A DNA stretch of 40,147 nucleotides from a virus (taxonomy: Duplodnaviria; Heunggongvirae; Uroviricota; Caudoviricetes), in IMG/VR virus record IMGVR_UViG_2778261267_000001; one strand, 5' to 3'. The stretch's first letter is position 1. Each line of letters opens with the position of its first letter. Positions 5,100-39,076 of this stretch are shown here, one piece after another. The notes under the pieces were generated by a model, which did not search any database, was not told where the DNA came from, and saw nothing but the letters and a program-made list of their open reading frames with translations. The translations under genes and the position numbers were made by a program.

Positions 5100-5684
5100 T
5101 TATTGTTTGTTTTTTTCGTTCTGGCTGATGACAAATTCAATGTAACTTTCGATCTTTGCCTTCTCTGTTTCGGGTAACAATGCGTAGCGCGAGCGGTCAT
5201 AGTTGATAGTCGCAGGGTCGTGCGGGTGAATCAGTAATTCATAGCCGTGACGCCCGAATGCGGATGCAACATTCTCCAGGGTGGAAATGGAAACGCTGAC
5301 CTCATTGTTTAACAGGCGGCTGATTGTCACCTGGGCGACGCCGGATGCGCGGTGAAGTTTTCCCTGAGTTGAAAGGTCGCGGCTTTCGCTCATCCAGCGT
5401 TCCAGGTTGTGAGCCGCCAGCTGACCAATGTCGCTTGGGCCGACAGGCTGAAAACCTTCCTGAGAAAGCGAGCGATCGATATCAAGCCAGTTACGGGGTT
5501 TATTGGCGGCAGCTTCAATTTTTCGCGCAACCTGGTCGCCGATAACCTTCTTGCCAAGAGCCCAGCGGTTTACCAGATTTGCCTGAGTTCCAAGTTTTTC
5601 TGCCATCCGCGTCTGAACACCATTGAATTCACGGTCGATCAAGTCGTTGAGATTTTGCCTGCGGACGTCCTGGATACTTTTCAT
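5100..5684 (-). CDS. CI-like phage repressor (HTH DNA-binding protein, no obvious peptidase domain)
   Basis: 194-aa ORF divergent from a cro-like gene; HTH-like segments (MAEKLGTQANLVNRW, VAQVTISRLLNNE). Operator-like palindromes lie on both sides of the gene. Confidence 0.7.
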   Translation of the reverse strand: MKSIQDVRRQNLNDLIDREFNGVQTRMAEKLGTQANLVNRWALGKKVIGDQVARKIEAAANKPRNWLDIDRSLSQEGFQPVGPSDIGQLAAHNLERWMSESRDLSTQGKLHRASGVAQVTISRLLNNEVSVSISTLENVASAFGRHGYELLIHPHDPATINYDRSRYALLPETEKAKIESYIEFVISQNEKNKQ

Positions 5685-5739
5685 TTTCTGGAAAATCGCC
5701 TCATATATGAATCAGTAGATGATTCAATTTAAAGCAATA

Positions 5740-5802
5740 TTACCCAACAGGTAAATGCACCCCATAGGTAACTATCCTTGATTTTTGTTACCTTATGGGT
5801 GA
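5740..5802. promoter_or_regulatory. Divergent immunity promoter/operator region (OR-like) with three tandem operator-like sites
   Basis: Perfect TTACCCAACAGGTAA at 5740-5754, imperfect GCACCCCATAGGTAA at 5756-5770 and TTACCTTATGGGTGA at 5788-5802. A candidate rightward promoter (-35 TTGTTA 5786-5791, -10 TATTAT 5808-5813) overlaps the third site. Confidence 0.65.
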
Positions 5803-5838
5803 ATATTTATTATCTGAAATAAATATCAGGCAATAGCT

Positions 5839-6069
5839 ATGAGCGATAACGGACATTTCGATTTCAAAAAGCACTGGCTTGCACTTACTCCGGATGAGCG
5901 TGAAGCCTTCGCACAGGAAGCCGGAACGACGAGTCACTATATCCAGACTCACTTAACAGGTAAGCGCAAAATGCCAGGTAAGGTATTGATGAATGGGCTT
6001 TTTAAAGCCTGTAAATCAAGACAATGGTTGCGCTCAAAAGCAGAACTGGCATACTTCTTCTACTCATGA
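5839..6069 (+). CDS. Cro-like small regulator (76 aa)
   Basis: Small ORF divergent from the repressor, immediately downstream of the operator cluster and followed by a terminator; call is by position and size. Confidence 0.55.
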   Translation: MSDNGHFDFKKHWLALTPDEREAFAQEAGTTSHYIQTHLTGKRKMPGKVLMNGLFKACKSRQWLRSKAELAYFFYS

Positions 6070-6090
6070 TATCCAGCCACAACCCTCTGT

Positions 6091-6116
6091 AGACCGCCAT
6101 CCGGCGGTCTTTTTAT
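6091..6116 (+). terminator. Intrinsic terminator after the cro-like gene (tR1-like position)
   Basis: Stem AGACCGCC / GGCGGTCT with loop ATCC (6091-6110) followed by TTTTT. Confidence 0.7.
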
Positions 6117-6219
6117 ATCTATTCGCACCTCAAAGGTAATAAAAAACCAAATTTGGTTGATCTTTTTTTTGTGTCAGCACAAAATAACCGTAATCCCAAT
6201 ACTAATAACAGGGCTTACC

Positions 6220-6420
6220 ATGGAAATCATTACACGTATTGATGCCGCAAAGCGCGGACTTAAACGCTACTACACCGGAAAAACATGTAAGCACGGACAT
6301 GACAGTGAACGCTGGGTTTACAACGGACACTGTGTTGAGTGCACCATGGAATCAAACCGTCGCATCAGGGCAGAGATTAAGCAGATCATGATTAATTCCT
6401 CCCCACAACACTCAAGCTGA
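6220..6420 (+). CDS. Hypothetical small Cys/His-rich protein (cII position)
   Basis: 66 aa from the ATG at 6220; the track's upstream extension from 6157 is hydrophobic junk. Contains CKHGH...HCVEC spacing suggestive of a zinc ribbon. Confidence 0.45.
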   Translation: MEIITRIDAAKRGLKRYYTGKTCKHGHDSERWVYNGHCVECTMESNRRIRAEIKQIMINSSPQHSS

Positions 6421-6435
6421 TAGCGGAGATTAATC

Positions 6436-7251
6436 ATGAGCAGACATGCAACAGATTGGGCCTGGGAGACAGATCCAGGCAGCTCATCATTAAAGCTCAT
6501 ACTGCTCTCGATGGCTGACAGAGCCGATGAATATAACCTCTGCTACCCCAGCATAGAACGCCTAGTTAAAGACACTTGCCTGAATAAAAAAACCGTGCAG
6601 GCCGGACTTATATCGCTCATGAAAATGGGGCTTATTTCAGATACCGGAGAGAGAAAGGGAGCGACGAAAAGAGTGCGGGTTTTCTCTCTTAATATAACCA
6701 AAAACGGGAACATTAAAGGCAGCCGGGAAGGGGGTAATGAACCCAAAAACGGTAATGTTACCGAAAACGGGAATATACCCAAAAACGGGATGCTGAATGA
6801 TCCCAAAAACGGGATGTTGAATGATCCCAAAAACGGGATCCAGAACCAGTCATATAACCAGTCATTTAATCAAGAGAGGGAGAGCAGGACAAAAAACGGG
6901 GATTCTGTGCATCATGACCCAGGCGCAAACAACGCCGTGATGAATAACTTTGTTCCTCCTGGTGGGCCAGGGCAATTAGGCAAATTTGTCATGCATGAAC
7001 AATGGCAGCCATCAGATGACTTTCTTCGGAAAAGCTCATTGCAGGGAATCTACCTGGATAGTCTGCCAACGGCACAGGAACTTGCAGAGTTCAGAATTTA
7101 CTGGATGGCTGAGGGTAAGGCATACCATCAGGCACAGTGGGAGCAGAAGCTGGCAAGGCGGCTGCAGATTAGCAGACAGAAGCAATCAACATTAACTGAT
7201 AACAACGTTCCGCACTGGAACAGCCCTGAAGCATGGGAGGATTTCTTGTGA
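6436..7251 (+). CDS. Replication initiator (lambda O-like role) with an internal repeat-encoding segment
   Basis: 271-aa ORF directly upstream of and overlapping the P-like gene. Middle of the gene carries tandem DNA repeats (iteron-like) encoding PKNGMLND repeats. Confidence 0.75.
   Translation: MSRHATDWAWETDPGSSSLKLILLSMADRADEYNLCYPSIERLVKDTCLNKKTVQAGLISLMKMGLISDTGERKGATKRVRVFSLNITKNGNIKGSREGGNEPKNGNVTENGNIPKNGMLNDPKNGMLNDPKNGIQNQSYNQSFNQERESRTKNGDSVHHDPGANNAVMNNFVPPGGPGQLGKFVMHEQWQPSDDFLRKSSLQGIYLDSLPTAQELAEFRIYWMAEGKAYHQAQWEQKLARRLQISRQKQSTLTDNNVPHWNSPEAWEDFL
6696..6845. repeat. Iteron-like tandem repeats inside the O-like gene (candidate origin of replication)
   Basis: Five to six copies of CCAAAAACGG(G/T)A, including two adjacent 24-bp units (TCCCAAAAACGGGATG[C/T]TGAATGA at 6778-6801 and 6802-6825). 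Confidence 0.7.
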
Positions 7252-16093: not shown

Positions 16094-16170
16094 TGGCGTG
16101 GCATGCAGGATTCGAACCTGCGACCAACCGCTTAGAAGGCGGTTGCTCTGTCCAACTGAGCTAATGCCAC
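16094..16170 (-). tRNA. tRNA-Arg (anticodon UCU, decodes AGA)
   Basis: 77-nt cloverleaf folded by hand: acceptor GTGGCAT/ATGCCAC, D-stem GCTC/GAGC, anticodon stem ACCGC/GCGGT with loop CTTCTAA (anticodon TCT), T-arm GCAGG-TTCGAAT-CCTGC, discriminator G, encoded CCA. Confidence 0.85.
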
Positions 16171-30100: not shown

Positions 30101-32575
30101 ATGAGACAGGAATGTATACAAGCGGTCCAGCAGGCGGCGCAGCGCACGTTAACGGCGCGAGAAATACAGAACATTGAAGACCGCATTTATCGAAATATGC
30201 GCTCCATTGCTCGTGATGACCCGATGTCGTGGCGACAACTTTCCGAATCAGAACGGTTGTATCGTGCAGCACAATTGGCATCTGAAGAATTACAGCGAGA
30301 AGCGGCATTAAAGAAACGTCGTGTGGCTCTCACTATAGCCGCACGTCAGAGATTGGATAAATTTATCAATAGCTATCAAGGGGCTGATGGGAAACTTGGC
30401 GCTCTTAACCGTACTATTGCTTTTAATGCAGACGGTAAATCGAATTTCCTCTCTGTTGAATCCAGAACAAAAGCCACTCGTGATTATGCATTGAGTCAAT
30501 TGCAGGAGGCATTTGAAGCAGTTGATCCTCGCTTTTTTGGCCTGTTTGAAGATGAAGCGGGCGTACGTGACCTGGTATATGAAATGCGGGGGCAAAATAC
30601 TGGCAATGCTAAAGCAAGAAAAGGTGCTAAAGCGTGGAGAGAAGTTACAGAGCTGCTGCGCCGCCGGTTTAATGATGCTGGTGGGGACATTGGCTATCTC
30701 GAAAACTGGGGGATCCCTCAACATCATTCTATGGAAAAGGTTGGTGCGGTATCAAAGGATAAGTGGGTTAGCGATGTTATAGGTAAGCTGGATCGCAAAT
30801 ATTATACCCGAGCCGATGGACAACTGATGAACGATGCCGAGTTGTCTGCATTTCTTGGAGAGGCTTATAACACGATCGCTACTGGTGGGCTGAATAAGCT
30901 TACTGATACCGGAATGCGAATTTCCGGCGCACGTGCTAACCGTGGTAATGCATCACGACAGATACATTTCAAAGATGCAGATTCCTATCTCCAATATCAA
31001 CAACTTTATGGCGATCGCTCTCTATGGGAAATCATGGTCGGTCACCTGGAAGGTATCAGTAAAGATATTGCTCTGGTGGAAACATATGGTCCAAACCCCG
31101 ATCATGTTTTCCGCTCCCTTCTTGATCAGGTTAAGGCAGAAACGGCAACAGCTAACCCGAGTAAAACCGGTAAAGTCGAGCGGCTGGCGAACAACACAGA
31201 GAATCTGTACAACTTTATTTCCGGAAAGACACAGCCTGTAGCGAATCCGCACATCGCGCGATGGTCTGACAATATCCGCAACTGGCTGGTTGCCAGCAGG
31301 CTCGGATCCGCGTTGCTGTCATCGTTCTCTGATCTTGGAACCATGTATCTGTCTGCGAAGGTTACCAACCTTCCAATGAACCAGTTATTCCGCAACCAGC
31401 TTGAAGCTATGGACCCAACGAACCGTACAGAACTTGCGCGGGCGCGCCGCGCTGGTCTGGCGATGGAATCTCTACTTGGCAGCGTTAACCGCTGGGCGAT
31501 GGATAATATGGGGCCGTCAGTGTCTCGTTGGGCGGCAACGGCGGTAATGCGTGCCAGTGGGCTTACAGCATGGTCAGATGCGCACAAGCGCGCCTATGGC
31601 GTAACCATGATGGGAAGCCTGGGAGAAGTAGTGTCACGGACACCAGACCTTCGTAGCCTTGATGACTCTGATTTTCGTATCCTGAAAAGCAAAGGGATTA
31701 CTGACACAGACTGGAGCGTATGGAAGTTGGCGCAACAGGAGGACTGGGGGAACGGTAATAATACGATGCTGACGCCGGAAAGCATTATGCGTATCCCTGA
31801 TTCAGCAGTTAAACATCTTGGTGAGCCTGAACGCGTGAAATTTGAGGCAATGCGTAAACTGCTCGGTGCCGTAACTGAAGAAGTTGATATGGCTGTTATT
31901 ACACCGGGAGCACGTGAGCAACTGATAACCGGTTCTGGTATTCAGCGTGGAACATGGAAAGGTGAATTAACGAGAAGTGTTTTCCTGTTTAAATCGTTCC
32001 CTATCTCGGTTGTTATGCGTCACTGGTCACGCGCTATGGGTATGCCGTCTGCTGGTGGGCGTGCGGCATATATTGCGACGTTTATTGCCAGTACGACCAT
32101 TCTTGGCGCTTTGTCGCAGCAACTTAACGACCTTGCGTCTGGTCGTAATCCTCGAGAGATGACAGGAGAAGATGCCGCAAAGTTCTGGCTTGGTGCTCTA
32201 CTGAAAGGTGGTGGTCTTGGCCTGTACGGTGACTTTTTATTGTCAGATCACACTAGGTACGGAAGCGGCGCGCTGGCGTCGATGCTTGGCCCGGTAGCTG
32301 GTCTGGTTGATGACGTAGTGAAGATTGCTCAGGGCATACCGTTAAATGCTGTGGAAGGGAAGAGTGAGCAGATTGGTGGTGATCTGGTGAAGCTGGGGAA
32401 AGGTTTGATGCCTGGTGCGAATCTCTGGTACTTGAAGGCGGCTCTCGATCACATGATCTTTAACCAGATGCAGGAGTATTTTTCACCAGGCTATTTGCGT
32501 AAAATGGAGCAACGTTCGAAGAAAGAGTTTAACCAGACATACTGGTGGCGACCTCAGGATGTCACTCCGCAATAA
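30101..32575 (+). CDS. Internal virion/ejection protein (T7 gp16-like position, 824 aa)
   Basis: Large ORF immediately upstream of the tailspike region; role by position only. Confidence 0.55.
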   Translation: MRQECIQAVQQAAQRTLTAREIQNIEDRIYRNMRSIARDDPMSWRQLSESERLYRAAQLASEELQREAALKKRRVALTIAARQRLDKFINSYQGADGKLGALNRTIAFNADGKSNFLSVESRTKATRDYALSQLQEAFEAVDPRFFGLFEDEAGVRDLVYEMRGQNTGNAKARKGAKAWREVTELLRRRFNDAGGDIGYLENWGIPQHHSMEKVGAVSKDKWVSDVIGKLDRKYYTRADGQLMNDAELSAFLGEAYNTIATGGLNKLTDTGMRISGARANRGNASRQIHFKDADSYLQYQQLYGDRSLWEIMVGHLEGISKDIALVETYGPNPDHVFRSLLDQVKAETATANPSKTGKVERLANNTENLYNFISGKTQPVANPHIARWSDNIRNWLVASRLGSALLSSFSDLGTMYLSAKVTNLPMNQLFRNQLEAMDPTNRTELARARRAGLAMESLLGSVNRWAMDNMGPSVSRWAATAVMRASGLTAWSDAHKRAYGVTMMGSLGEVVSRTPDLRSLDDSDFRILKSKGITDTDWSVWKLAQQEDWGNGNNTMLTPESIMRIPDSAVKHLGEPERVKFEAMRKLLGAVTEEVDMAVITPGAREQLITGSGIQRGTWKGELTRSVFLFKSFPISVVMRHWSRAMGMPSAGGRAAYIATFIASTTILGALSQQLNDLASGRNPREMTGEDAAKFWLGALLKGGGLGLYGDFLLSDHTRYGSGALASMLGPVAGLVDDVVKIAQGIPLNAVEGKSEQIGGDLVKLGKGLMPGANLWYLKAALDHMIFNQMQEYFSPGYLRKMEQRSKKEFNQTYWWRPQDVTPQ

Positions 32576-32584
32576 GGAAGTGTT

Positions 32585-32758
32585 GTGTTTTTAATTATTT
32601 TGAGTGTGATAATTTCTGGTGGATTGTTATTTATTGACCGCTACAAATATTTTCTTAACCCTCAGACTCAAGCTATTTGCTGGTTCATCTTTGTTGTGCA
32701 GGGAGTAGTTCTTGTTGCAAGCCTTATTGAGGGGAGGCCTCTTATTTTTACTGGGTAA
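32585..32758 (+). CDS. Small hydrophobic membrane protein (57 aa, GTG start)
   Basis: ORF below the track cut-off, translated by hand (VFLIILSVIISGGLLFIDRYKYFLNPQTQAICWFIFVVQGVVLVASLIEGRPLIFTG). Two predicted TM helices; AGGAAG 4 nt upstream of the GTG; AT-rich. Confidence 0.35.
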   Translation: MFLIILSVIISGGLLFIDRYKYFLNPQTQAICWFIFVVQGVVLVASLIEGRPLIFTG

Positions 32759-32770
32759 ATAGGTGACTAC

Positions 32771-33067
32771 ATGCAAGCTATAGGATTCATTGTTTATATC
32801 GTCGTTGGTCTTTTTCAGTTGGCAGCAATTATGGCTGGGCTTGAATCATGGTGGGGATTGCACTGGATAATTGCAGCCCCCATCGCTTTCATCGTGAGCT
32901 ATATTCCATTTGTTGGAGCGATTGTTGGTATGGTTGGCGCTGTGGATGTATGGCGGTGGGAGTGGTGGCAGGCTGGCCTTCTCTTCTTTGGTGGGATCAT
33001 CTTTGCTATTGTCTGCGGTGGAATGTCATCATTTTTCGAATGGCTATCATTCAGAAAAGGAACGTGA
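32771..33067 (+). CDS. Small integral membrane protein (98 aa)
   Basis: ORF with AGGTG RBS; almost entirely hydrophobic with Trp-rich loops (three or more TM helices); followed by a terminator. Confidence 0.55.
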   Translation: MQAIGFIVYIVVGLFQLAAIMAGLESWWGLHWIIAAPIAFIVSYIPFVGAIVGMVGAVDVWRWEWWQAGLLFFGGIIFAIVCGGMSSFFEWLSFRKGT

Positions 33068-33075
33068 CATGTCAC

Positions 33076-33100
33076 AGGCCGCTTTCGCGGCCTTTTCTTT
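33076..33100 (+). terminator. Intrinsic terminator after the membrane-protein genes
   Basis: AGGCCGC-TTTC-GCGGCCT hairpin followed by TTTCTTT; preceded by a 12-bp palindrome GTGACATGTCAC (33064-33075). Confidence 0.65.
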
Positions 33101-33374
33101 ATGTAGTTTGTTTTCGTAATTGTTCGGCACAATAGTCGAGATGTGTTTGCAGATCCTGCATAGACATCTGTGAGCTGGTGACGTAGTTAATCAGTGCAGT
33201 CAGTTCGGCAAGTGGGCCATCGACATTAAATCCATCCTTATCGAGATCCCGGAGTAATTTCATCAAGTGCGATCCATCCACCAGTGACCTGACGCCTCCC
33301 GGCGTGTGAATCCTTTCGGTAAATCCGTCTTCCAGTGGATAGTGATACTGCTGCATCTTATCTTCTCCATGCAA
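33099..33374 (-). CDS. Hypothetical protein (91 aa), divergent from the tailspike gene
   Basis: ORF convergent with the membrane-protein genes and sharing a 177-bp divergent control region with the tailspike gene; no motif recognised. Confidence 0.45.
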   Translation of the reverse strand: MHGEDKMQQYHYPLEDGFTERIHTPGGVRSLVDGSHLMKLLRDLDKDGFNVDGPLAELTALINYVTSSQMSMQDLQTHLDYCAEQLRKQTT

Positions 33375-33432
33375 TAACTGTATATTTATACAGTATCAAA
33401 TAATTTGTTTGCTATCCAGCACGTTTTGCGAA

Positions 33433-33498
33433 TTACCTGAAAGGTAATATCTATTCGTGTTTATGGGTTATCTATCCATATGTGGTTTTTAAGGTAAT
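33433..33498. promoter_or_regulatory. Tailspike / divergent-gene control region: TTACC-N5-GGTAA palindrome plus TATGTGGTT-N5-GGTAAT element
   Basis: TTACCTGAAAGGTAA at 33433-33447; TATGTGGTT at 33479-33487; GGTAAT at 33493-33498. Confidence 0.55.
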
Positions 33499-33551
33499 AG
33501 AATAACCGGATATGCGGCGCAACGGGTGCTGCGACTATCTGGAGATTTAAC

Positions 33552-35750
33552 ATGACGGTCTCAACCGAAGTTGACCACAACGAATACACAGGTAACGGCG
33601 TTACGACATCGTTTCCGTATACCTTCCGCATTTTCAAAAAATCCGACCTGGTTGTTCAGGTGGTTGACCTTGACGAAAATATCGCTGTGCTGGCTCTTGA
33701 TACTGATTATACAGTTACCGGGGCGGGAGGATATAACGGTGGTAATGTAATTCTGTCGAAGGCGCTGGCTAACGGTTATAAGATTTCTATATCACGAGAG
33801 CTACCGGTTACTCAGGAAACTGATCTGCGCAATCAGGGCAAGTTCTTTGCAGAAGTGCATGAGGATGCTTTTGATAAACTGACTATGCTGATTCAGCAGG
33901 CTATTAGTTTGTTGCGTCTTTCTCTGCGTAAACCGTCTTTTGTCGCAAATTACTATGATGCTCTGAACAATTACATTCGCAATCTTCGTGACCCGTCACG
34001 TCCACAGGATGCAGCAACAAAGAATTATGTTGATAGTCTTGCTGAAGAAAATTTAAGACGAACTTTGCGAACCCCTGAACGGATACCAGAACTCCCTGGA
34101 GTTGAACAGCGTAAGAATAAGATTATTGCAATGGATGATTCTGGAAATCCGATAATGGTTTTGCCTGAATCTGGTTCAGCATCAGATGTTCTGATTGAAC
34201 TAGCTAAGCCAAGCGGCCTTGGTATGATAGGGGCATCTTCTGGAAATAGTGCGCAGGCTGATATTGATTTATTGTCTTATGCTTACGGTATAAGATTAAG
34301 CACTTACCTTGATCGCGAAGACCCTTTGAGTGATGCTCTGATTGATTCACGATCAAAAAATCTACCATTAGTCATTGACTGCGATGCGACGTACAAAACA
34401 TTTCTGGTTTACAGTAACGACAGGATAATCGGTTGCGGAGATCATACTTTAACAAAAGCAGGGAATGACAAGTCATCAATACCATCAGCACAGCAACCTG
34501 AACGCCCACCTGGAACGATGACAGATTTCAGCGCGATTGATGCCGGTATTATTATCGTTCACCCTGAAAATGGAGCAGCAACTAATATCGAAATCACAGG
34601 GTTTAACATAAAAAGCAACTCTCACTCCGAATATGGAATATATCATCCTGTTTTATCATTTTCACGTATATCTAATATCAAAATTACTGGCTTTAAAAAG
34701 GGGATGAGAGCAAAAGACTCTTATGGAAACCAGTTTAGTAAAATATTCTCATTGTATTATTACTCTCCCCAAGATGTTTATAGCGACAACTATTGTTATG
34801 ATTTTTCTGATGGAGATTACGCCTCAGGAACAAGTAACACATTCAGTAATGTTACCTGTACTAACTATAAGAGACCATTCTTCTTTCAGAACCATAATTA
34901 CTTCACGATGACAAACTGTGGTGGTGAAGGGGTTAATACGCATGAGGCAGTAACAAACACAAACTATCCTCTTGTTTTTGAGTTTGTAAATGTTGTAAGT
35001 GCTGTATTGAACACTCCTTATACTGAAAATCTTTATGGAGGATTTTTAAGAGCAACATCAACGCCTGAAGGAACTGCGCAAGGTCCATCAACTATAGTTA
35101 TAAATGGACCGCAGGCAATTACAGGCATATACGGAACAGACACTGAAGTTGGAGCAAAGTTATTTGATGTAAGCGGCTCAGTAAACGTAGCTGTTAATGG
35201 TGGGGTGTTGACAGGTGCATCATTTGGCAAGTTCCTTAAGTTTGGCGGGGCTTCAGACGAAGCATGTCTGCTGATAACGGGCATGGATATGAAGTATGTG
35301 CTGTCTCAAATACGTAGTGATTTTGGATATAACGGAATTAATTCAGTTAAAGGACTTAGGCCAATTCAAATTTTGAGGAATGGAATTGGCTCTGCAACTG
35401 GTAGCGGGATTGTTAACTGGAAAAGTGCATCTATAGATGATTATTTTATGAATGGCGGTAATTATACAAAAACAGCGCTTGGTGGTTTTTATAAGATAGA
35501 AATTACGCTGCCAATAGGATCATCTGCATCAGGTGGAGAAGTTCAACTCTTGCTGTCAGATACGGATACAGACAATGGAGTTATAATTTCACAATGCTAT
35601 GTTCCTCCAGTGTCAAGCGGTAAGTTTACTGCCTCCATAAGCTACGAAGGTAGATTGCCTGGAGGAAAGTACCTTTATGTAAAGGCTAATAATGCCAGCT
35701 GGTCATCTGCATACGACATTGATTCAGTGTTTAATGTAATCCTGAAGTAA
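33552..35750 (+). CDS. Tailspike / receptor-binding protein with a low-GC C-terminal (likely O-antigen-directed) domain
   Basis: 732-aa ORF with strong RBS. N-terminal ~170 aa at normal GC, remainder markedly AT-rich; C-terminal region rich in N/G/S/T, consistent with a beta-helix receptor-binding fold. Confidence 0.8.
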   Translation: MTVSTEVDHNEYTGNGVTTSFPYTFRIFKKSDLVVQVVDLDENIAVLALDTDYTVTGAGGYNGGNVILSKALANGYKISISRELPVTQETDLRNQGKFFAEVHEDAFDKLTMLIQQAISLLRLSLRKPSFVANYYDALNNYIRNLRDPSRPQDAATKNYVDSLAEENLRRTLRTPERIPELPGVEQRKNKIIAMDDSGNPIMVLPESGSASDVLIELAKPSGLGMIGASSGNSAQADIDLLSYAYGIRLSTYLDREDPLSDALIDSRSKNLPLVIDCDATYKTFLVYSNDRIIGCGDHTLTKAGNDKSSIPSAQQPERPPGTMTDFSAIDAGIIIVHPENGAATNIEITGFNIKSNSHSEYGIYHPVLSFSRISNIKITGFKKGMRAKDSYGNQFSKIFSLYYYSPQDVYSDNYCYDFSDGDYASGTSNTFSNVTCTNYKRPFFFQNHNYFTMTNCGGEGVNTHEAVTNTNYPLVFEFVNVVSAVLNTPYTENLYGGFLRATSTPEGTAQGPSTIVINGPQAITGIYGTDTEVGAKLFDVSGSVNVAVNGGVLTGASFGKFLKFGGASDEACLLITGMDMKYVLSQIRSDFGYNGINSVKGLRPIQILRNGIGSATGSGIVNWKSASIDDYFMNGGNYTKTALGGFYKIEITLPIGSSASGGEVQLLLSDTDTDNGVIISQCYVPPVSSGKFTASISYEGRLPGGKYLYVKANNASWSSAYDIDSVFNVILK

Positions 35751-35777
35751 ACTAAGGCCCAGAACATGGGCCTTTCG

Positions 35778-36836
35778 TTACTTTATAAAGCGGCGACCTA
35801 TTGAAATAAAATGCTTTTCAATTAGTTCGTGCACTGCCACTGATATTATTAAGGTGATTGATAAAACTATAAACAACCTAGAAAACCCTGATGTGTTTGT
35901 GAAAATAAATGTATCGTACTTATAAATGCACTCAAGTATAATTACATGCACTATATATAATGAATAAGATATATCCCCGAGGTACTCAAGAGTGTTGCAT
36001 TTTTTTATTCCATTATTTTTTTCATACATAACTAAAATAAATACTATTAGAGCGCTTAGCCCCCCCCACTTTAATGGGCCGTGACCATAGAATAAATTAA
36101 TCTGGGATGCAATTAACGAAAATAACAGAAGCAATAGCCAAGGTGTAATTTTATTAAACAATATGGACTTGAAATCTACATGTTTGTATATTGCATATAT
36201 AATAATCCCATATACAAAATCAAGAAACATTGGTGAATAGAAAAGAGCGAATGCATTGCTTGGCGTTACGTTAACTTGTTTTGTATAAGCATCTGTAGAA
36301 ATCGAATCATTGAAATAGTAAGAGGCCACAATGAATATTACAACGATAGATAGCAAGCTAATGCATGTTCTGTATTTTTGATTGAAGGCAATAGCCAACC
36401 CAAAAATAGCATAGAATGCGATTTCATAAGTTATCGTCCATGCAGTATCAAGTAAATTGAACCCATAAAAAGGACTTCCTGCAGAATAATCGCTATGTAT
36501 TGGTATTAATGATTTTATGTATAATGAGTAACTGGATTCTGATTTAATGGTTAAGAAATAAACTGTCACGCATATTATCAGTAAAGGATAAATCCTGAAA
36601 AAACGACGAATAAAAAAATTAAATACGGCGTGCTTTTCAAGCCTTTCAGTTGAAAGGCATATTATAAATCCGCTAATTATAAAAAAAAGGTCAACACCGA
36701 AAGCCCCGTAATTGAAAAGCAAAGAACCTAGATCCTTCTGTGAGTAAACTTCATTCAAATACCACTTCGTATGATAAAGAACCACAAAAATAGAAGCAAA
36801 TCCCCTCATGTATTGTATTGAATGAACTTTGTTCAA
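35778..36836 (-). CDS. Acyltransferase family 3 membrane protein (probable O-antigen acetyltransferase, lysogenic conversion)
   Basis: 352-aa very AT-rich ORF with about ten hydrophobic segments and an N-terminal MRGFASIFVVLYH segment typical of acyltransferase_3 enzymes. Confidence 0.8.
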   Translation of the reverse strand: MNKVHSIQYMRGFASIFVVLYHTKWYLNEVYSQKDLGSLLFNYGAFGVDLFFIISGFIICLSTERLEKHAVFNFFIRRFFRIYPLLIICVTVYFLTIKSESSYSLYIKSLIPIHSDYSAGSPFYGFNLLDTAWTITYEIAFYAIFGLAIAFNQKYRTCISLLSIVVIFIVASYYFNDSISTDAYTKQVNVTPSNAFALFYSPMFLDFVYGIIIYAIYKHVDFKSILFNKITPWLLLLLFSLIASQINLFYGHGPLKWGGLSALIVFILVMYEKNNGIKKCNTLEYLGDISYSLYIVHVIILECIYKYDTFIFTNTSGFSRLFIVLSITLIISVAVHELIEKHFISIGRRFIK

Positions 36837-37046
36837 TTAAATAACCCTCTGCTTAATAATATTTTTACATAACTGTAAGTTATTTTGATTCTCATAAGAA
36901 CCAATGGTTTTTAGAAAACCACCACAAGCAAATCGAAGTTTATCACCTTTGGGGTAATTGCGGTAGAATTGGTATGACGTTTTTTGAACCGCATATGGTT
37001 TATTGTGTATGATGAACTCATCAATAAGTTGGTTCTTCATGCACAT
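36837..37046 (-). CDS. Hypothetical small protein (69 aa) upstream of the acyltransferase - doubtful
   Basis: AT-rich ORF abutting the acyltransferase start; a near-operator palindrome (36943-36957) lies inside it, so this may be promoter DNA rather than a gene. Confidence 0.3.
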   Translation of the reverse strand: MCMKNQLIDEFIIHNKPYAVQKTSYQFYRNYPKGDKLRFACGGFLKTIGSYENQNNLQLCKNIIKQRVI

Positions 37047-37061
37047 TAAACGGTGGTTTTT

Positions 37062-37466
37062 ATGTCAGTTCAGCTAACCAGTGAGTCTTTAAATCAGTGG
37101 CTTAGTGCTGGTTCTCTTGCTGCGGTGATAGCAGGGGTTCCTCCAGAGGTGGCTTTGGGGGCTTTGGCTGGGGCGGTAATTTTTGTTACCTCGGCCATCG
37201 AGTATCCCATTCATCGCCGGGTTCTCCTGTCTATGCTCAGCTTCCTCTGCGGCCTTCTCTTTTACAAACCTACAGCGTCCATCCTTATCGGTGTAGCCAG
37301 CCTGATCCCTACCATCACGCAGGACTCTTTCGAGAAAGGGATTGTTTTCTCTGCTGGTGCATTCGTGTCAGCAATCGTTGCAGTTCGAATTGGCATCTGG
37401 CTCTATCACCGTTCCGATAATCCACGCGAGTTAATTCCGGGGAGAAAAGACGATGGTAACGCATGA
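37062..37466 (+). CDS. Holin-like membrane protein
   Basis: 134 aa from the ATG at 37062; three or more hydrophobic helices; first gene of the lysis cassette, upstream of the endolysin. Confidence 0.5.
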   Translation: MSVQLTSESLNQWLSAGSLAAVIAGVPPEVALGALAGAVIFVTSAIEYPIHRRVLLSMLSFLCGLLFYKPTASILIGVASLIPTITQDSFEKGIVFSAGAFVSAIVAVRIGIWLYHRSDNPRELIPGRKDDGNA

Positions 37467-37761
37467 GCTTTTTTTGCTTATCACCAATGCAGTTATTTGT
37501 ACTGGCATAGCAATTCGTGTTGTCACATTCCGGCGTAACGGATCTCAACACCGAAGATGGGGAGGCTGGCTTGCTTATTTTCTGATTGTTGCTGCGGCCA
37601 GTATTCCAGTTCGTGCTGTCTATGCAATCTGGCTACGCACGCCAATGGCTGTGGATTTATCTGAGGTCATTATCAACGCTGTCATGTTTGCTGCGGTTGT
37701 TAAAACGCGCGGTAACGTCGTTCAGTTTTTCAAAATAACGAGGTCTAAACATGGAGATTAA
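37453..37761 (+). CDS. Second small membrane protein of the lysis cassette (holin/antiholin candidate)
   Basis: 102-aa ORF with three hydrophobic segments, overlapping both neighbours. Confidence 0.5.
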
Positions 37762-38380
37762 ACAATTCCAGCGAGCTGCTGGTATTAGCGAGGCGCTGGC
37801 CGCACGCTGGTTCTCGCATATAACTTCTGCGATGAAAGAGTTTGGTATCAGCAAACCAGAAGATCAGGCAATGTTTATTGCTCAGGTCGGGCATGAGTCT
37901 GGAGGCTTCACCCGGCTGCAGGAGAACTTCAACTACAGCGTGACCGGGCTGGCGGGATTCGTCCGTTCCGGGCGCCTCACTCAGGGCCAGGCCAACGCGC
38001 TGGGCCGTCGTGCTGGTGAGCCATCGTTACCGCTGGAGCGCCAGCGTGCGATCGCCAATCTGGTGTATAGCAAGCGCATGGGGAACAACGGGCCGACTGA
38101 CGGCTGGTTTTACCGTGGGCGCGGGCTTATCCAGATTACCGGTTTGAATAACTATCGTGACTGCGGAAACGGTCTAAAAGTGGACCTGCTGGAGAATCCT
38201 GAGCTGTTGACGCAGGACGAATACGCGGCTCGTAGCGCGGCGTGGTTCTTCTCCAGCAAAGGCTGCATGAAGTATCCCGGAGATATTGCACGTGTAACTC
38301 TGATTATCAATGGTGGCCGGAACGGCATCGACGACCGGCGCGCGCGGTACGTTACTGCCAGTAAGGTGCTGGCCGTATGA
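37751..38380 (+). CDS. Endolysin, glycoside hydrolase family 19 (chitinase-like lysozyme)
   Basis: 209-aa ORF; the segment [12 protein letters not shown]...[11 protein letters not shown] matches the GH19 catalytic core as used by phage endolysins. Confidence 0.8.
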
Positions 38381-38859
38381 TCTGGGCATTCGTAAAAGCA
38401 TACCGTAATCAGTTGATTATCATGGCGGTGCTTGCTGTTCTGGTCATATCAGGAGTTGTTGCCTGGAATGTGCACGGCAGTCGTCAGTACGACGCTGGGT
38501 ATGCACAGGCGAAAGAAGACCGCAAAACCGAAGATGAGAGAGTTCGTCAGCACTACGAACAGGAGAAATCGATCAATGAACGTGAAGCGCAGCAGAGGAT
38601 CGACCAGGCGCACAATGATGCTCTTGATGCTGCCGCTCGCGCTGGCCGGTTGCAGCAACAGCTCGTTGCCATCCGTGAGCAGCTCAGGCACTATAACGCC
38701 ATTGTCGGCGCTGGGTCGTCAGCCGCAGACACCGGAGTTTTGCTTGCCGACGTGTTCAGCAAATCTCTCGAGAGAAATAGACAACTGGCAGAGTATGCTG
38801 ACCGGGCATCCGAAGCCGGAAGAGTCTGCGAAAAACAGTATGACACCCTGACCAGATAG
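38377..38859 (+). CDS. Rz-like i-spanin
   Basis: 160-aa ORF with an N-terminal TM helix and a coiled-coil periplasmic domain; overlaps the endolysin stop; contains an embedded +1-frame lipoprotein ORF. Confidence 0.7.
38576..38851 (+). CDS. Rz1-like o-spanin (lipoprotein) embedded within the Rz gene
   Basis: Alternative-frame ORF wholly inside Rz, with AGGAG RBS 10 nt upstream of the ATG at 38576, a lipobox (LALAGCS) and a Pro/Ser-rich mature part. Confidence 0.6.
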   Translation: MNVKRSRGSTRRTMMLLMLPLALAGCSNSSLPSVSSSGTITPLSALGRQPQTPEFCLPTCSANLSREIDNWQSMLTGHPKPEESAKNSMTP

Positions 38860-39004
38860 CATGGCATTTTTCATGGTACTGATTTCCTGTGACGGTATAT
38901 AAAACGGTACGAGGAAAATTTAGCTTTAGAAAAGTGTTATCACTCAATTGGTTATGGCGTCCGTAAATAATTGAGTGGGAATGATTTGATCCTGCACTAT
39001 GAAT

Positions 39005-39038
39005 GAACAAAACCCTCTGTTACTACAGAGGGTTTTTT
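39005..39038. terminator. Bidirectional intrinsic terminator at the putative prophage right boundary
   Basis: ACCCTCTGT-TACT-ACAGAGGGT hairpin flanked by AACAAAA on one side and TTTTTT on the other. Confidence 0.7.
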
Positions 39039-39076
39039 ATCTTCAAGAATCATAGGCTTGAAGTTAGTAACATCGA

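Follow-up and report, generated by a model that had tools for sequence, protein, structure and literature searches.

A swapped receptor-binding domain and a convergent acyltransferase gene downstream of the tailspike anchor of a Uetakevirus prophage

In the viral record IMGVR_UViG_2778261267_000001, a tailspike gene converges on a gene for a membrane acyltransferase, and this part of the DNA is low in G+C content (GC). Where does this pair of genes come from, have the two traveled together, and do they act on the same host glycan? The window considered here is the whole 40,147-nt stretch of this record. An earlier note, made from its sequence without database searches, had proposed that the receptor-binding domain (RBD) of the tailspike and the acyltransferase arrived together as one cassette. 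We consider it probable that the locus is the variable slot downstream of the tailspike in a Uetakevirus prophage, and that it holds a swapped-in RBD together with a convergent acyltransferase that modifies the same receptor; the biochemistry is the part of this reading that we infer.

The replaced block and its base composition

Nearly the whole window is a prophage of the epsilon15/phiV10 type, and we assign it to the genus Uetakevirus because of its synteny with, and 87-93% nucleotide identity to, phiV10, phiv142-3 and HEMP4 on both flanks of the locus. Over positions 33000-37500, only the flanks align, at 93% identity to the Escherichia phages HEMP4 and phiv142-3 and at 87-88% to phiV10; from about 34035/34195 to 36941/37039, similarity to all three is absent. 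These alignments lead us to conclude that a block of about 2.7 kb (34196/34266 to ~36940) has replaced the content that the relatives carry in the slot. The block comprises the RBD, a terminator, an AT3 acyltransferase gene and the upstream region belonging to that gene.

On the left, the block begins within the tailspike gene (33552-35750, + strand), which encodes 732 residues and for which Pfam returned no match. The anchor and neck of the protein (residues 1-215; 33552..34196, + strand) form a conserved Uetakevirus virion-attachment module. Its N-terminal ~205 residues are homologous to phiV10 gp25 and epsilon15 gp20, and Pas et al. (PMC10408124) take the first 205 residues of the phiV10 tailspike protein as the anchor. 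Identity to phiV10 is 87% in nucleotides up to 34195 and 82% in amino acids over residues 1-227, beyond which the two are unrelated; a Citrobacter prophage matches at 79% over residues 1-216, and tail PHROGs, including phrog_1640, match residues 1-240. The similarity to individual relatives ends at 33670-33728, 33898 (phiv142-3), 34035 (the commonest end), 34063, 34195 (phiV10) or 34177-34246 (as far as 34246 in Salmonella 65FD). Because the similarity to phiV10 stops at 34195 and C-terminal homologues with other anchors start to align at residue 216 in protein and at 34266-34277 in DNA, we place the left junction of the foreign block at 34196-34266. The fusion of a conserved anchor to a foreign RBD, as described in the earlier note, is thus borne out, but the recombination junction that it had expected at 34,050-34,150 lies 50-200 bp further right.

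On the right, similarity to the backbone restarts at 36941 in phiV10, at 36939-36993 in SPN1S and epsilon15 (36993 in the latter) and at 37039 in phiv142-3, placing the end of the replaced block, by alignment, at about 36940. What follows is a backbone regulatory region upstream of the lysis genes (36941..37061, + strand), 87.5% identical to phiV10 from 36941; in the epsilon15 record, an RNase III site is annotated in the matching stretch upstream of gp23.

The low GC that had first singled out this locus is real. It averages 0.363 over 34100-37050 and 0.499 over 1-32575, and, among all 2,950-bp intervals (mean 0.486, SD 0.034), the minimum of 0.363 begins at 34101, in agreement with the start given in the earlier note, so the profile is far from uniform. 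The sharp drop that the earlier note saw about 500 bp into the tailspike gene is present as a drop but not as a sharp one: total GC declines gradually over 33750-34800 (0.45, 0.41, 0.36), rises again to ~0.40-0.42 over 34950-35850, sinks to 0.31-0.32 over 35850-37050 and jumps to 0.51 beyond 37050. Unsupervised maximum-likelihood segmentation divides the window into 1-32447 (GC 0.499), 32448-35798 (0.416), 35799-37094 (0.319) and 37095 to the end (0.503); its boundaries at 32448, 35799 and 37095 include none near 34100, where a single sharp change-point had been sought. The right edge is sharp, near 37050-37095, and the low GC reaches to about 37095 because the backbone stretch 36941-37061 is AT-rich.

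Nor is total GC uniform within the block, which had been described as one low-GC stretch: it forms two plateaus, at 0.394 in the RBD and 0.319 in the acyltransferase gene. The whole of this gap stems from codon positions 1 and 2 and so reflects the amino-acid composition of a membrane protein. At third codon positions (GC3), the RBD (0.307) and the acyltransferase gene (0.309) are equal at 0.31 each, so that the two are uniform at synonymous sites. The corresponding values are 0.42 for the anchor (residues 1-162), 0.23 for the neck (residues 163-215) and, among the lysis genes, 0.49 (holin-like) and 0.65 (endolysin). Within the tailspike open reading frame (ORF), GC3 goes from 0.54 (codons 1-50) through ~0.40 to ~0.25 by codon 121 (nt 33915).

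Could the low GC reflect protein composition only, a hydrophobic membrane protein beside a beta-helix rich in Asn, Ser, Thr and Ile, rather than foreign origin? The confinement of the RBD/acyltransferase gap to the first two codon positions is what this explanation would lead one to expect. GC3, however, is largely free of protein constraint, and both genes have 0.31 where their neighbors have 0.42-0.65. Moreover, the closest relatives, with 93% identity to the window on each side of the block, lack any homologue of it, and other phage types and genera do have homologues. GC3 and homology already contradict an explanation by composition, to which we give virtually no credence.

Low GC nevertheless says little about whether the RBD and the acyltransferase share an origin, as the earlier note had argued from it. 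In phiV10, GC3 is 0.43 in the anchor, 0.32 in the RBD, 0.32 in oac and 0.58 in the endolysin gene. Because this is the same pattern with an RBD and an oac gene unrelated to those of the window, low GC is general to the slot.

The slot and its candidate functions

What do related phages carry in this position? The phiV10 slot holds a convergent oac gene, whose product is annotated in the record with the words 'acetylates the host O-antigen; functions in superinfection immunity'; the tail fiber gp25 and the convergent Oac (PhiV10p26) of this phage were reportedly described by Perry et al. in 2009. A convergent 625-residue O-antigen acetylase follows the tail fiber gene in Tyrion. In epsilon15, the tail fiber gene is followed by a terminator and then, in convergent orientation, by genes for an O-polymerase and a polymerase inhibitor, and in phiv142-3 there is only a 99-residue ORF with no function given. 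In the Lederbergvirus SI8, an ExoZ-like acyltransferase gene converges on that of the tailspike. Proteus and Morganella have Uetake-like prophages (L014-L018, L038) in which gtrA-gtrB-gtrC lies between the holin-like gene and a tailspike with an RBD of the window's family; its orientation is co-directional in the Proteus prophages and convergent in those of Morganella. O-antigen-modifying genes are thus known to gather in this slot, and the window locus fits it: a separate convergent transcription unit lies directly downstream of the tailspike gene of a temperate phage. PMC10408124 reports that Kutter-, Lederberg- and Uetakeviruses exchange RBDs with one another, and that the three genera resemble each other little in the region that follows the tailspike gene.

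The RBD (residues 216-732; 34197..35750, + strand) is predicted to consist of a beta-helix depolymerase-like domain and a C-terminal jelly-roll of ~130 residues. Residues 216-732 correspond to phrog_25325, 'tail spike protein' (E=3e-203), and the tailspike depolymerase 24qi is a sequence match in the PDB (E=2.5e-12). An AlphaFold monomer model of the tailspike, built from a 21-sequence alignment, has a predicted local distance difference test (pLDDT) score mostly of 74-93 over residues 331-732, mixed scores (56-74) over residues 241-300 and low scores over residues 301-330. The top Foldseek matches of this model are phage tailspike depolymerases, at E of ~1e-8 (24qi, 8iq9, 6eu4; Belisarius gp86, K2-2 TSP, AS12 gp42), and its last ~130 residues match C1q/TNF-like jelly-rolls. 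Model and Foldseek matches thus agree with the suspicion, voiced from the sequence, of a beta-helix depolymerase at the C terminus. We conclude from the model that the RBD has a tailspike depolymerase fold; its cleavage activity is a prediction. Six acidic residues (D276, D278, D290, E459, E477 and E492) are invariant, and the active site may lie among them.

RBDs of this family occur on P22-type (PF09008), Tail_spike_N-type (PF18668) and Uetake-type anchors. The Kutterviruses BSP101, heyday, Se-E, moki and FrontPhageNews carry it at 65-66% amino acid identity over residues 225-732, with one 327-nt stretch of FrontPhageNews 82% identical to the window; scanning the genome contig collection with the RBD, and with an alignment of its family, found no relatives. 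The domain is itself a mosaic. Against the P22-like viral contig L012, nucleotide identity runs at 75-81%, then 56-68% and then 91-94%, the last value belonging to the jelly-roll (residues ~617-732; 35400-35747) and the middle one to the central beta-helix. The C-terminal jelly-roll appears to have been exchanged on its own.

The tailspike and acyltransferase genes are convergent, with 27 nt between them. Between the two stop codons lies a bidirectional intrinsic terminator (35754..35774), which has an 8-bp stem with 5 GC pairs and a T-run after it on either strand; it is identical in the metagenome contig L041 and conserved in the Citrobacter prophage L004, both described below.

The acyltransferase gene (35778..36836, - strand) starts with TTG and encodes a putative O-antigen O-acetyltransferase of 352 residues, an AT3-only integral-membrane protein. 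Residues 5-335 match profile positions 2-324 of the 326 in Pfam PF01757 (104.8 bits; cut-off 31), and the protein also matches phrog_3333, 'O-acetyltransferase' (E=6.5e-69). PMC9558356 names three AT3 signatures: R/K-X10-H (first transmembrane segment), RXXR (first cytoplasmic loop) and V-X-X-F-F-X-(I/V/L)-S-G-(F/W/Y); all three are present, as R11-X10-H22, R78FFR81 and V48DLFFIISGF57. The Pfam scan found no second domain (no SGNH) in these 352 residues. A crude Kyte-Doolittle scan gives 11 overlapping peaks that merge to about 6 strongly hydrophobic regions, and RefSeq names the same ORF of a matching E. coli genome 'acyltransferase family protein'. With a ratio of nonsynonymous to synonymous divergence (dN/dS) of 0.13 relative to the Citrobacter copy, the gene is, on this comparison, under purifying selection. 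The full PF01757 match and the three motifs uphold the identification of the convergent gene as an intact AT3 acyltransferase; the further designation as an O-antigen enzyme leans on position and on analogy with phiV10, Sf6 and BTP1.

Upstream of the acyltransferase gene, 36837..36940 (- strand) is specific to the cassette and is probably its promoter and 5' untranslated region: in 100-nt steps, it is 79-89% identical to Citrobacter L004, and it is absent from phiV10, phiv142-3 and epsilon15. A 69-residue ORF (36837-37046, - strand) came up as a candidate for a third gene of the cassette but is probably not a gene. It is divided between two frames in L004-L006, matches nothing in Pfam or PHROG, is unannotated in RefSeq and spans the junction between cassette and backbone. 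Its low-GC region is probably a promoter or leader, half of it cassette and half backbone.

The hosts offer a clue to the receptor. Of 5,426 complete E. coli genomes, 2 contain the identical stretch; one is environmental and comes from the Netherlands, the other is from chicken in the UK. Both have wzx and wzy genes annotated as 'O166 family' and share a single wzx protein accession; the O-antigen clusters lie at 14194-24529 of L026 (NZ_OZ197100.1) and 16606-26941 of L027 (NZ_CM128562.1). Isolate 23S01245-7 and strain 2824 are examples of O166 lysogens. A principle used in PMC10408124 is that prophage tailspikes usually match the O-antigen of their host. Because the carriers are of the O166 family, and given this principle, the RBD is likely to be O166-specific. 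An O166-type polysaccharide is the most likely ligand of the RBD, and, by analogy with characterized phages, it is also most likely what the acyltransferase would O-acylate in the lysogen.

The mechanism that we propose runs as follows. The trimeric tailspike would bind and cleave the O166-type O-polysaccharide of the host, allowing the virion to reach the outer membrane. In the lysogen, the acyltransferase would be transcribed from its own promoter, opposed to the silent late operon, with the terminator as insulator. The enzyme would take an acyl group, probably acetyl, from acyl-CoA in the cytoplasm and attach it to the O-unit at the periplasmic side, and the modified O-antigen would no longer be a substrate for this RBD. 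The outcome would be serotype conversion and the exclusion of superinfecting phages with the same RBD family, including lytic Kutterviruses (BSP101, heyday). An outcome of this kind has been shown in experiments for phiV10 Oac, Sf6 Oac and BTP1 OafB. According to PMC9558356, acetylation by Sf6 Oac and BTP1 OafB blocks the phage's own tailspike.

Several observations weigh against this proposal. Identity between the acyltransferase and phiV10 Oac is no more than 24%, over 110 residues (E=1e-3), short of the close relationship expected of Oac orthologues, and the analogy to phiV10 Oac rests on family and position, not orthology, because of this low identity. A tblastn search at 1e-5 did not recover phiV10. 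The close relatives, at 82% identity in Citrobacter, 77% in Salmonella and 63% in Proteus, belong to a different AT3 lineage from phiV10 Oac; the closest phage homologues are named 'exopolysaccharide production protein', and a sequence search of the PDB found no match. Upstream of the gene, a scan for sigma-70 promoters found 8 promoter-like sites, with 7.7 expected by chance. AT3 enzymes also modify enterobacterial common antigen (ECA), capsules, peptidoglycan and other glycans (PMC9558356). Finally, the substrates of both the tailspike and the acyltransferase are putative.

These points raise the alternative that the acyltransferase is an ordinary lysogenic-conversion gene whose target is a different envelope glycan (ECA; an exopolysaccharide such as colanic acid; or peptidoglycan), with no functional tie to the receptor of the tailspike. 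The many substrates of the AT3 family, the ExoZ-like annotation of the nearest phage homologues, the missing orthology to characterized Oac proteins and the occurrence of the acyltransferase in non-phage contexts are all compatible with it. The position of the gene, on the other hand, is the O-antigen-modification slot of published relatives, and one type of O-antigen gene cluster is found in all carriers checked. Furthermore, as detailed in the next section, the acyltransferase moves together with an RBD, and in Proteus the AT3 type switches with the C-terminal third of the RBD. Taken together, we regard an unrelated glycan as improbable and prefer a common receptor for the two proteins.

Linkage of the two genes

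Did the RBD and the acyltransferase arrive together? A metagenome contig in ENA (L041) carries a J-like, siphovirus-like tail protein (phrog_469) upstream of a 649-residue tailspike with a PF18668 anchor. The contig aligns with the window in one unbroken stretch of 1,682 nt at 92% identity, from 34266 of the window to the contig end at 35944. This alignment spans the RBD, the terminator, which is identical, and the final 54 codons of the acyltransferase gene; over the terminator and these codons, identity is 98-100%, and 53 of the 54 residues are the same. The 90% protein cluster of this tailspike has five members of 649 residues, including one from a Citrobacter freundii isolate genome (UDV54559.1), and we therefore take the anchor-RBD fusion not to be an assembly artifact. 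Two members of the cluster, P0246 and P0250, are encoded on contigs of 96 kb and 21 kb. The exact 51-nt junction of RBD stop, terminator and acyltransferase stop had no match in the viral or metagenome contig collections. As judged from this alignment, RBD, terminator and acyltransferase can move as one unit, in whichever direction the transfer took place.

A second line of evidence comes from L004, a Uetake-like prophage of Citrobacter freundii, whose alignment with the window is gapless over 35717-38985. A 42-nt piece located between the tailspike stop codon of L004 and the shared terminator is what remains of the final 47 nt of a window-type RBD. The local score of this remnant is 39, compared with 22 +/- 3.6 in shuffled sequences, and was reached by 0 of 500 of them; it implies that the RBD-acyltransferase pair was ancestral there and that the RBD was replaced later. 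Identity to L004 is 82% for the acyltransferase and 86%, 77%, 78% and 87% for the holin-like protein, holin, endolysin and Rz, respectively; synonymous divergence (dS) is 0.78 for the acyltransferase gene and 0.33-1.5 for the lysis genes. Because both measures fall within the range of the lysis genes, the acyltransferase seems to have diverged with the backbone while the RBD changed. This suggests that the pair is an old resident of the backbone, not a recent arrival.

The third case is in Proteus. L010, a P22-like prophage of Proteus mirabilis, has an RBD of the same family (49% identity) convergent with an acyltransferase of the same family (63%). Compared with L021, a nearly identical P22-like prophage of the same species, it is ~100% identical up to tailspike codon ~380, after which nucleotide identity falls from 81 to 63% by the end of the gene; the AT3 genes are non-homologous (two unrelated lineages), and beyond them identity is 88-93%. 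The differing block, 5200-7100 on the reverse complement of L010, takes in the last ~250 tailspike codons and the whole AT3 gene. We conclude from this comparison that one contiguous block, the 3' third of the RBD plus the acyltransferase gene, was replaced, and that the AT3 type changes with the C-terminal third of the RBD.

Other findings argue against a single, indivisible cassette. L041 stops 167 nt into the acyltransferase gene, leaving the right end of the shared block beyond the contig. The earlier note had held that a joint arrival would be refuted if the acyltransferase were conserved beside unrelated tailspike C termini, and this arrangement exists: in L004, the 82% identical acyltransferase occupies the same slot beside a tailspike whose C terminus is unrelated to that of the window. 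It also occurs by itself. In Salmonella bongori and S. enterica (L007-L009, 4600-11000), a 77% identical homologue stands alone among insertion sequence (IS), transposase and integrase fragments, outside any phage, with nucleotide homology to the window confined to 35756-36849; a 61% identical homologue elsewhere adjoins a RES-domain gene. Conversely, the RBD family is found without the window-type acyltransferase in L012, L013, L024 and the Kutterviruses. It is accompanied elsewhere by gtrABC or an unrelated AT3 gene, has an integrase or host gene directly downstream, or resides in lytic Kutterviruses.

These exceptions are the substance of another explanation, that of two independent acquisitions: the slot would be a hot spot for O-antigen-modifying genes, the RBD would have been swapped separately by anchor/RBD exchange, and adjacency and low GC would reflect only the slot and its gene pools. 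The L004 acyltransferase, beside an unrelated RBD and with a dS of 0.78 as if it were backbone, fits this well, as do the solitary copy on an IS-flanked Salmonella island, the varied partners of the RBD family (gtrABC, an unrelated AT3 gene, or nothing), the mosaicism inside the RBD and the equal GC3 pattern of phiV10 with unrelated genes. What makes it unlikely in our judgment is the unbroken 92% alignment of L041 across RBD, terminator and acyltransferase on another chassis, the window-type RBD remnant that makes the pair ancestral in the Citrobacter locus, the renewed pairing of the same two families in Proteus L010 and the Proteus block swap that takes in both genes.

The evidence as a whole is best summarized, on these alignments, as a loosely linked two-gene cassette, which can transfer whole and is also broken at its internal terminator and inside the RBD. 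Each module can also be swapped by itself, with junctions that recur at the tailspike neck (34035; 34195-34266), in the last 30-45 nt of the tailspike gene and at the 5' end of the acyltransferase gene. The joint arrival proposed earlier is thus supported as to co-mobility, by L041, the L004 remnant and the Proteus block, but not as an indivisible single event, given L004, Salmonella, the gtrABC pairings and the mosaic RBD. A more far-reaching version is that RBD, terminator and AT3 gene are a self-contained cassette passed between unrelated chassis (Uetakevirus, P22-like, and siphovirus-like with Tail_spike_N anchors), in which the AT3 type varies in step with the last third of the RBD; we hold this to be a real possibility, but only tentatively. 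If it were true, the specificity of the acyltransferase would be genetically matched to the exact glycan epitope read by the RBD, and RBD/acyltransferase pairs could predict which O-antigen modification blocks which tailspike.

The prophage and its known relatives

Around the block, gene order is conserved. The tailspike gene sits between a gp19-like gene and the lysis cassette, in synteny with phiV10, phiv142-3, epsilon15 and Tyrion and in agreement with the RefSeq annotation of an identical prophage. Upstream are a gene for a large virion protein (30101-32575) and two small ORFs; from the tailspike gene (+) onward, the order is acyltransferase (-), Phage_holin_8-like gene, holin, GH19 endolysin, Rz, and then the host genes yfgI and yfgH. 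The four lysis genes (37062..38859, + strand), comprising the Phage_holin_8-like membrane protein, holin, GH19 endolysin and Rz, were assigned by Pfam (PF16931, PF05449, PF00182) and RefSeq; their identity is 92% with phiv142-3, 87% with phiV10 and 77-87% with Citrobacter L004. Between their gp18-like and gp19-like genes, phiV10 and phiv142-3 have an antirepressor module (Bro-N / P22 Ant-like; ~1-2 kb), with nothing at 33067-33099 of the window (compared with 6042-7055 of L001 and 1602-3556 of L002). The prophage also contains a tRNA-Arg gene (anticodon TCT; 16094-16170, - strand).

Similarity to all phage relatives stops at 38985-38986, leaving an interval of ~90 bp (38986-39076) before yfgI, and this is where the alignments place the right prophage/host junction. 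The window begins at the first base of an ORF (1-1251) that lies where the integrase is expected, and for this reason we place the left att site outside the window; a search of the window for att-site direct repeats found none, the left prophage end lying beyond it.

In E. coli, the identical stretch adjoins yfgI/yfgH in the two complete genomes. An identical acyltransferase appears in 158 indexed blocks of the collection searched. Twenty-four contigs with it reduce to seven contexts, all with the neighborhood of yfgH/yfgI and lysis genes, and in each of these contigs the prophage adjoins yfgI. Over 33401-37300 (3.9 kb), the seven E. coli loci compared match the window at 99.7% identity or more, each with an intact tailspike gene, indicating that the RBD-acyltransferase pair is invariant among these loci.

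The architecture itself is textbook for phiV10, Sf6, P22 and epsilon15, and existing knowledge is unchanged; what is new is the RBD/AT3 pair in a known slot. The locus yields a candidate O166-specific tailspike RBD and a candidate matching O-antigen acyltransferase, neither of which has a characterized close relative. It also provides unusually clean examples of recombination: a shared block on another chassis, an RBD remnant left after a swap, and a Proteus swap of the RBD 3' third with the acyltransferase gene. Such cases bear on the sequence-based prediction of phage host range and serotype conversion, and on tailspike engineering.

Among known systems, the Kuttervirus tailspikes share the RBD family of the window, but they belong to lytic myoviruses with branched multi-tailspike complexes, another anchor and no acyltransferase; the BSP101 passage of PMC8432352 gives no host specificity for this tailspike subtype. 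Similar in layout are epsilon15 genes 20-22 and Tyrion gp22-gp23, in which the slot likewise lies between the tailspike and a gp23-like membrane protein and holds a terminator and convergent conversion genes. The epsilon15 genes differ in encoding an O-antigen polymerase and a polymerase inhibitor rather than an acyltransferase, and the Tyrion acetylase has 625 residues where the AT3-only protein of the window has 352.

The Lederbergviruses resemble the window in the convergent tailspike and acyltransferase of SI8 and in the pairing of the window's RBD and acyltransferase families on a P22-like Proteus prophage. They differ in their P22 head-binding anchor (PF09008) and in the place of the slot, at the prophage end by int/att and not before the lysis genes; there, moreover, function has been tested by experiment, whereas that of the window locus is predicted. 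Sf6 Oac, P22 gtrABC and BTP1 OafB present the same theme in temperate podoviruses, an O-antigen-cleaving tailspike with a modifier that blocks it encoded directly downstream (PMC9558356 and PMC10408124).

The remaining parallel is phiV10. Its RBD is unrelated and O157-specific, whereas that of the window is found in O166-family hosts; its Oac belongs to a distant AT3 lineage, and the antirepressor module upstream of its tailspike is missing from the window. What phiV10 and the window share is the backbone (87% nucleotide identity on both flanks), the anchor (82% of amino acids over residues 1-227), the gene order and the GC3 pattern.

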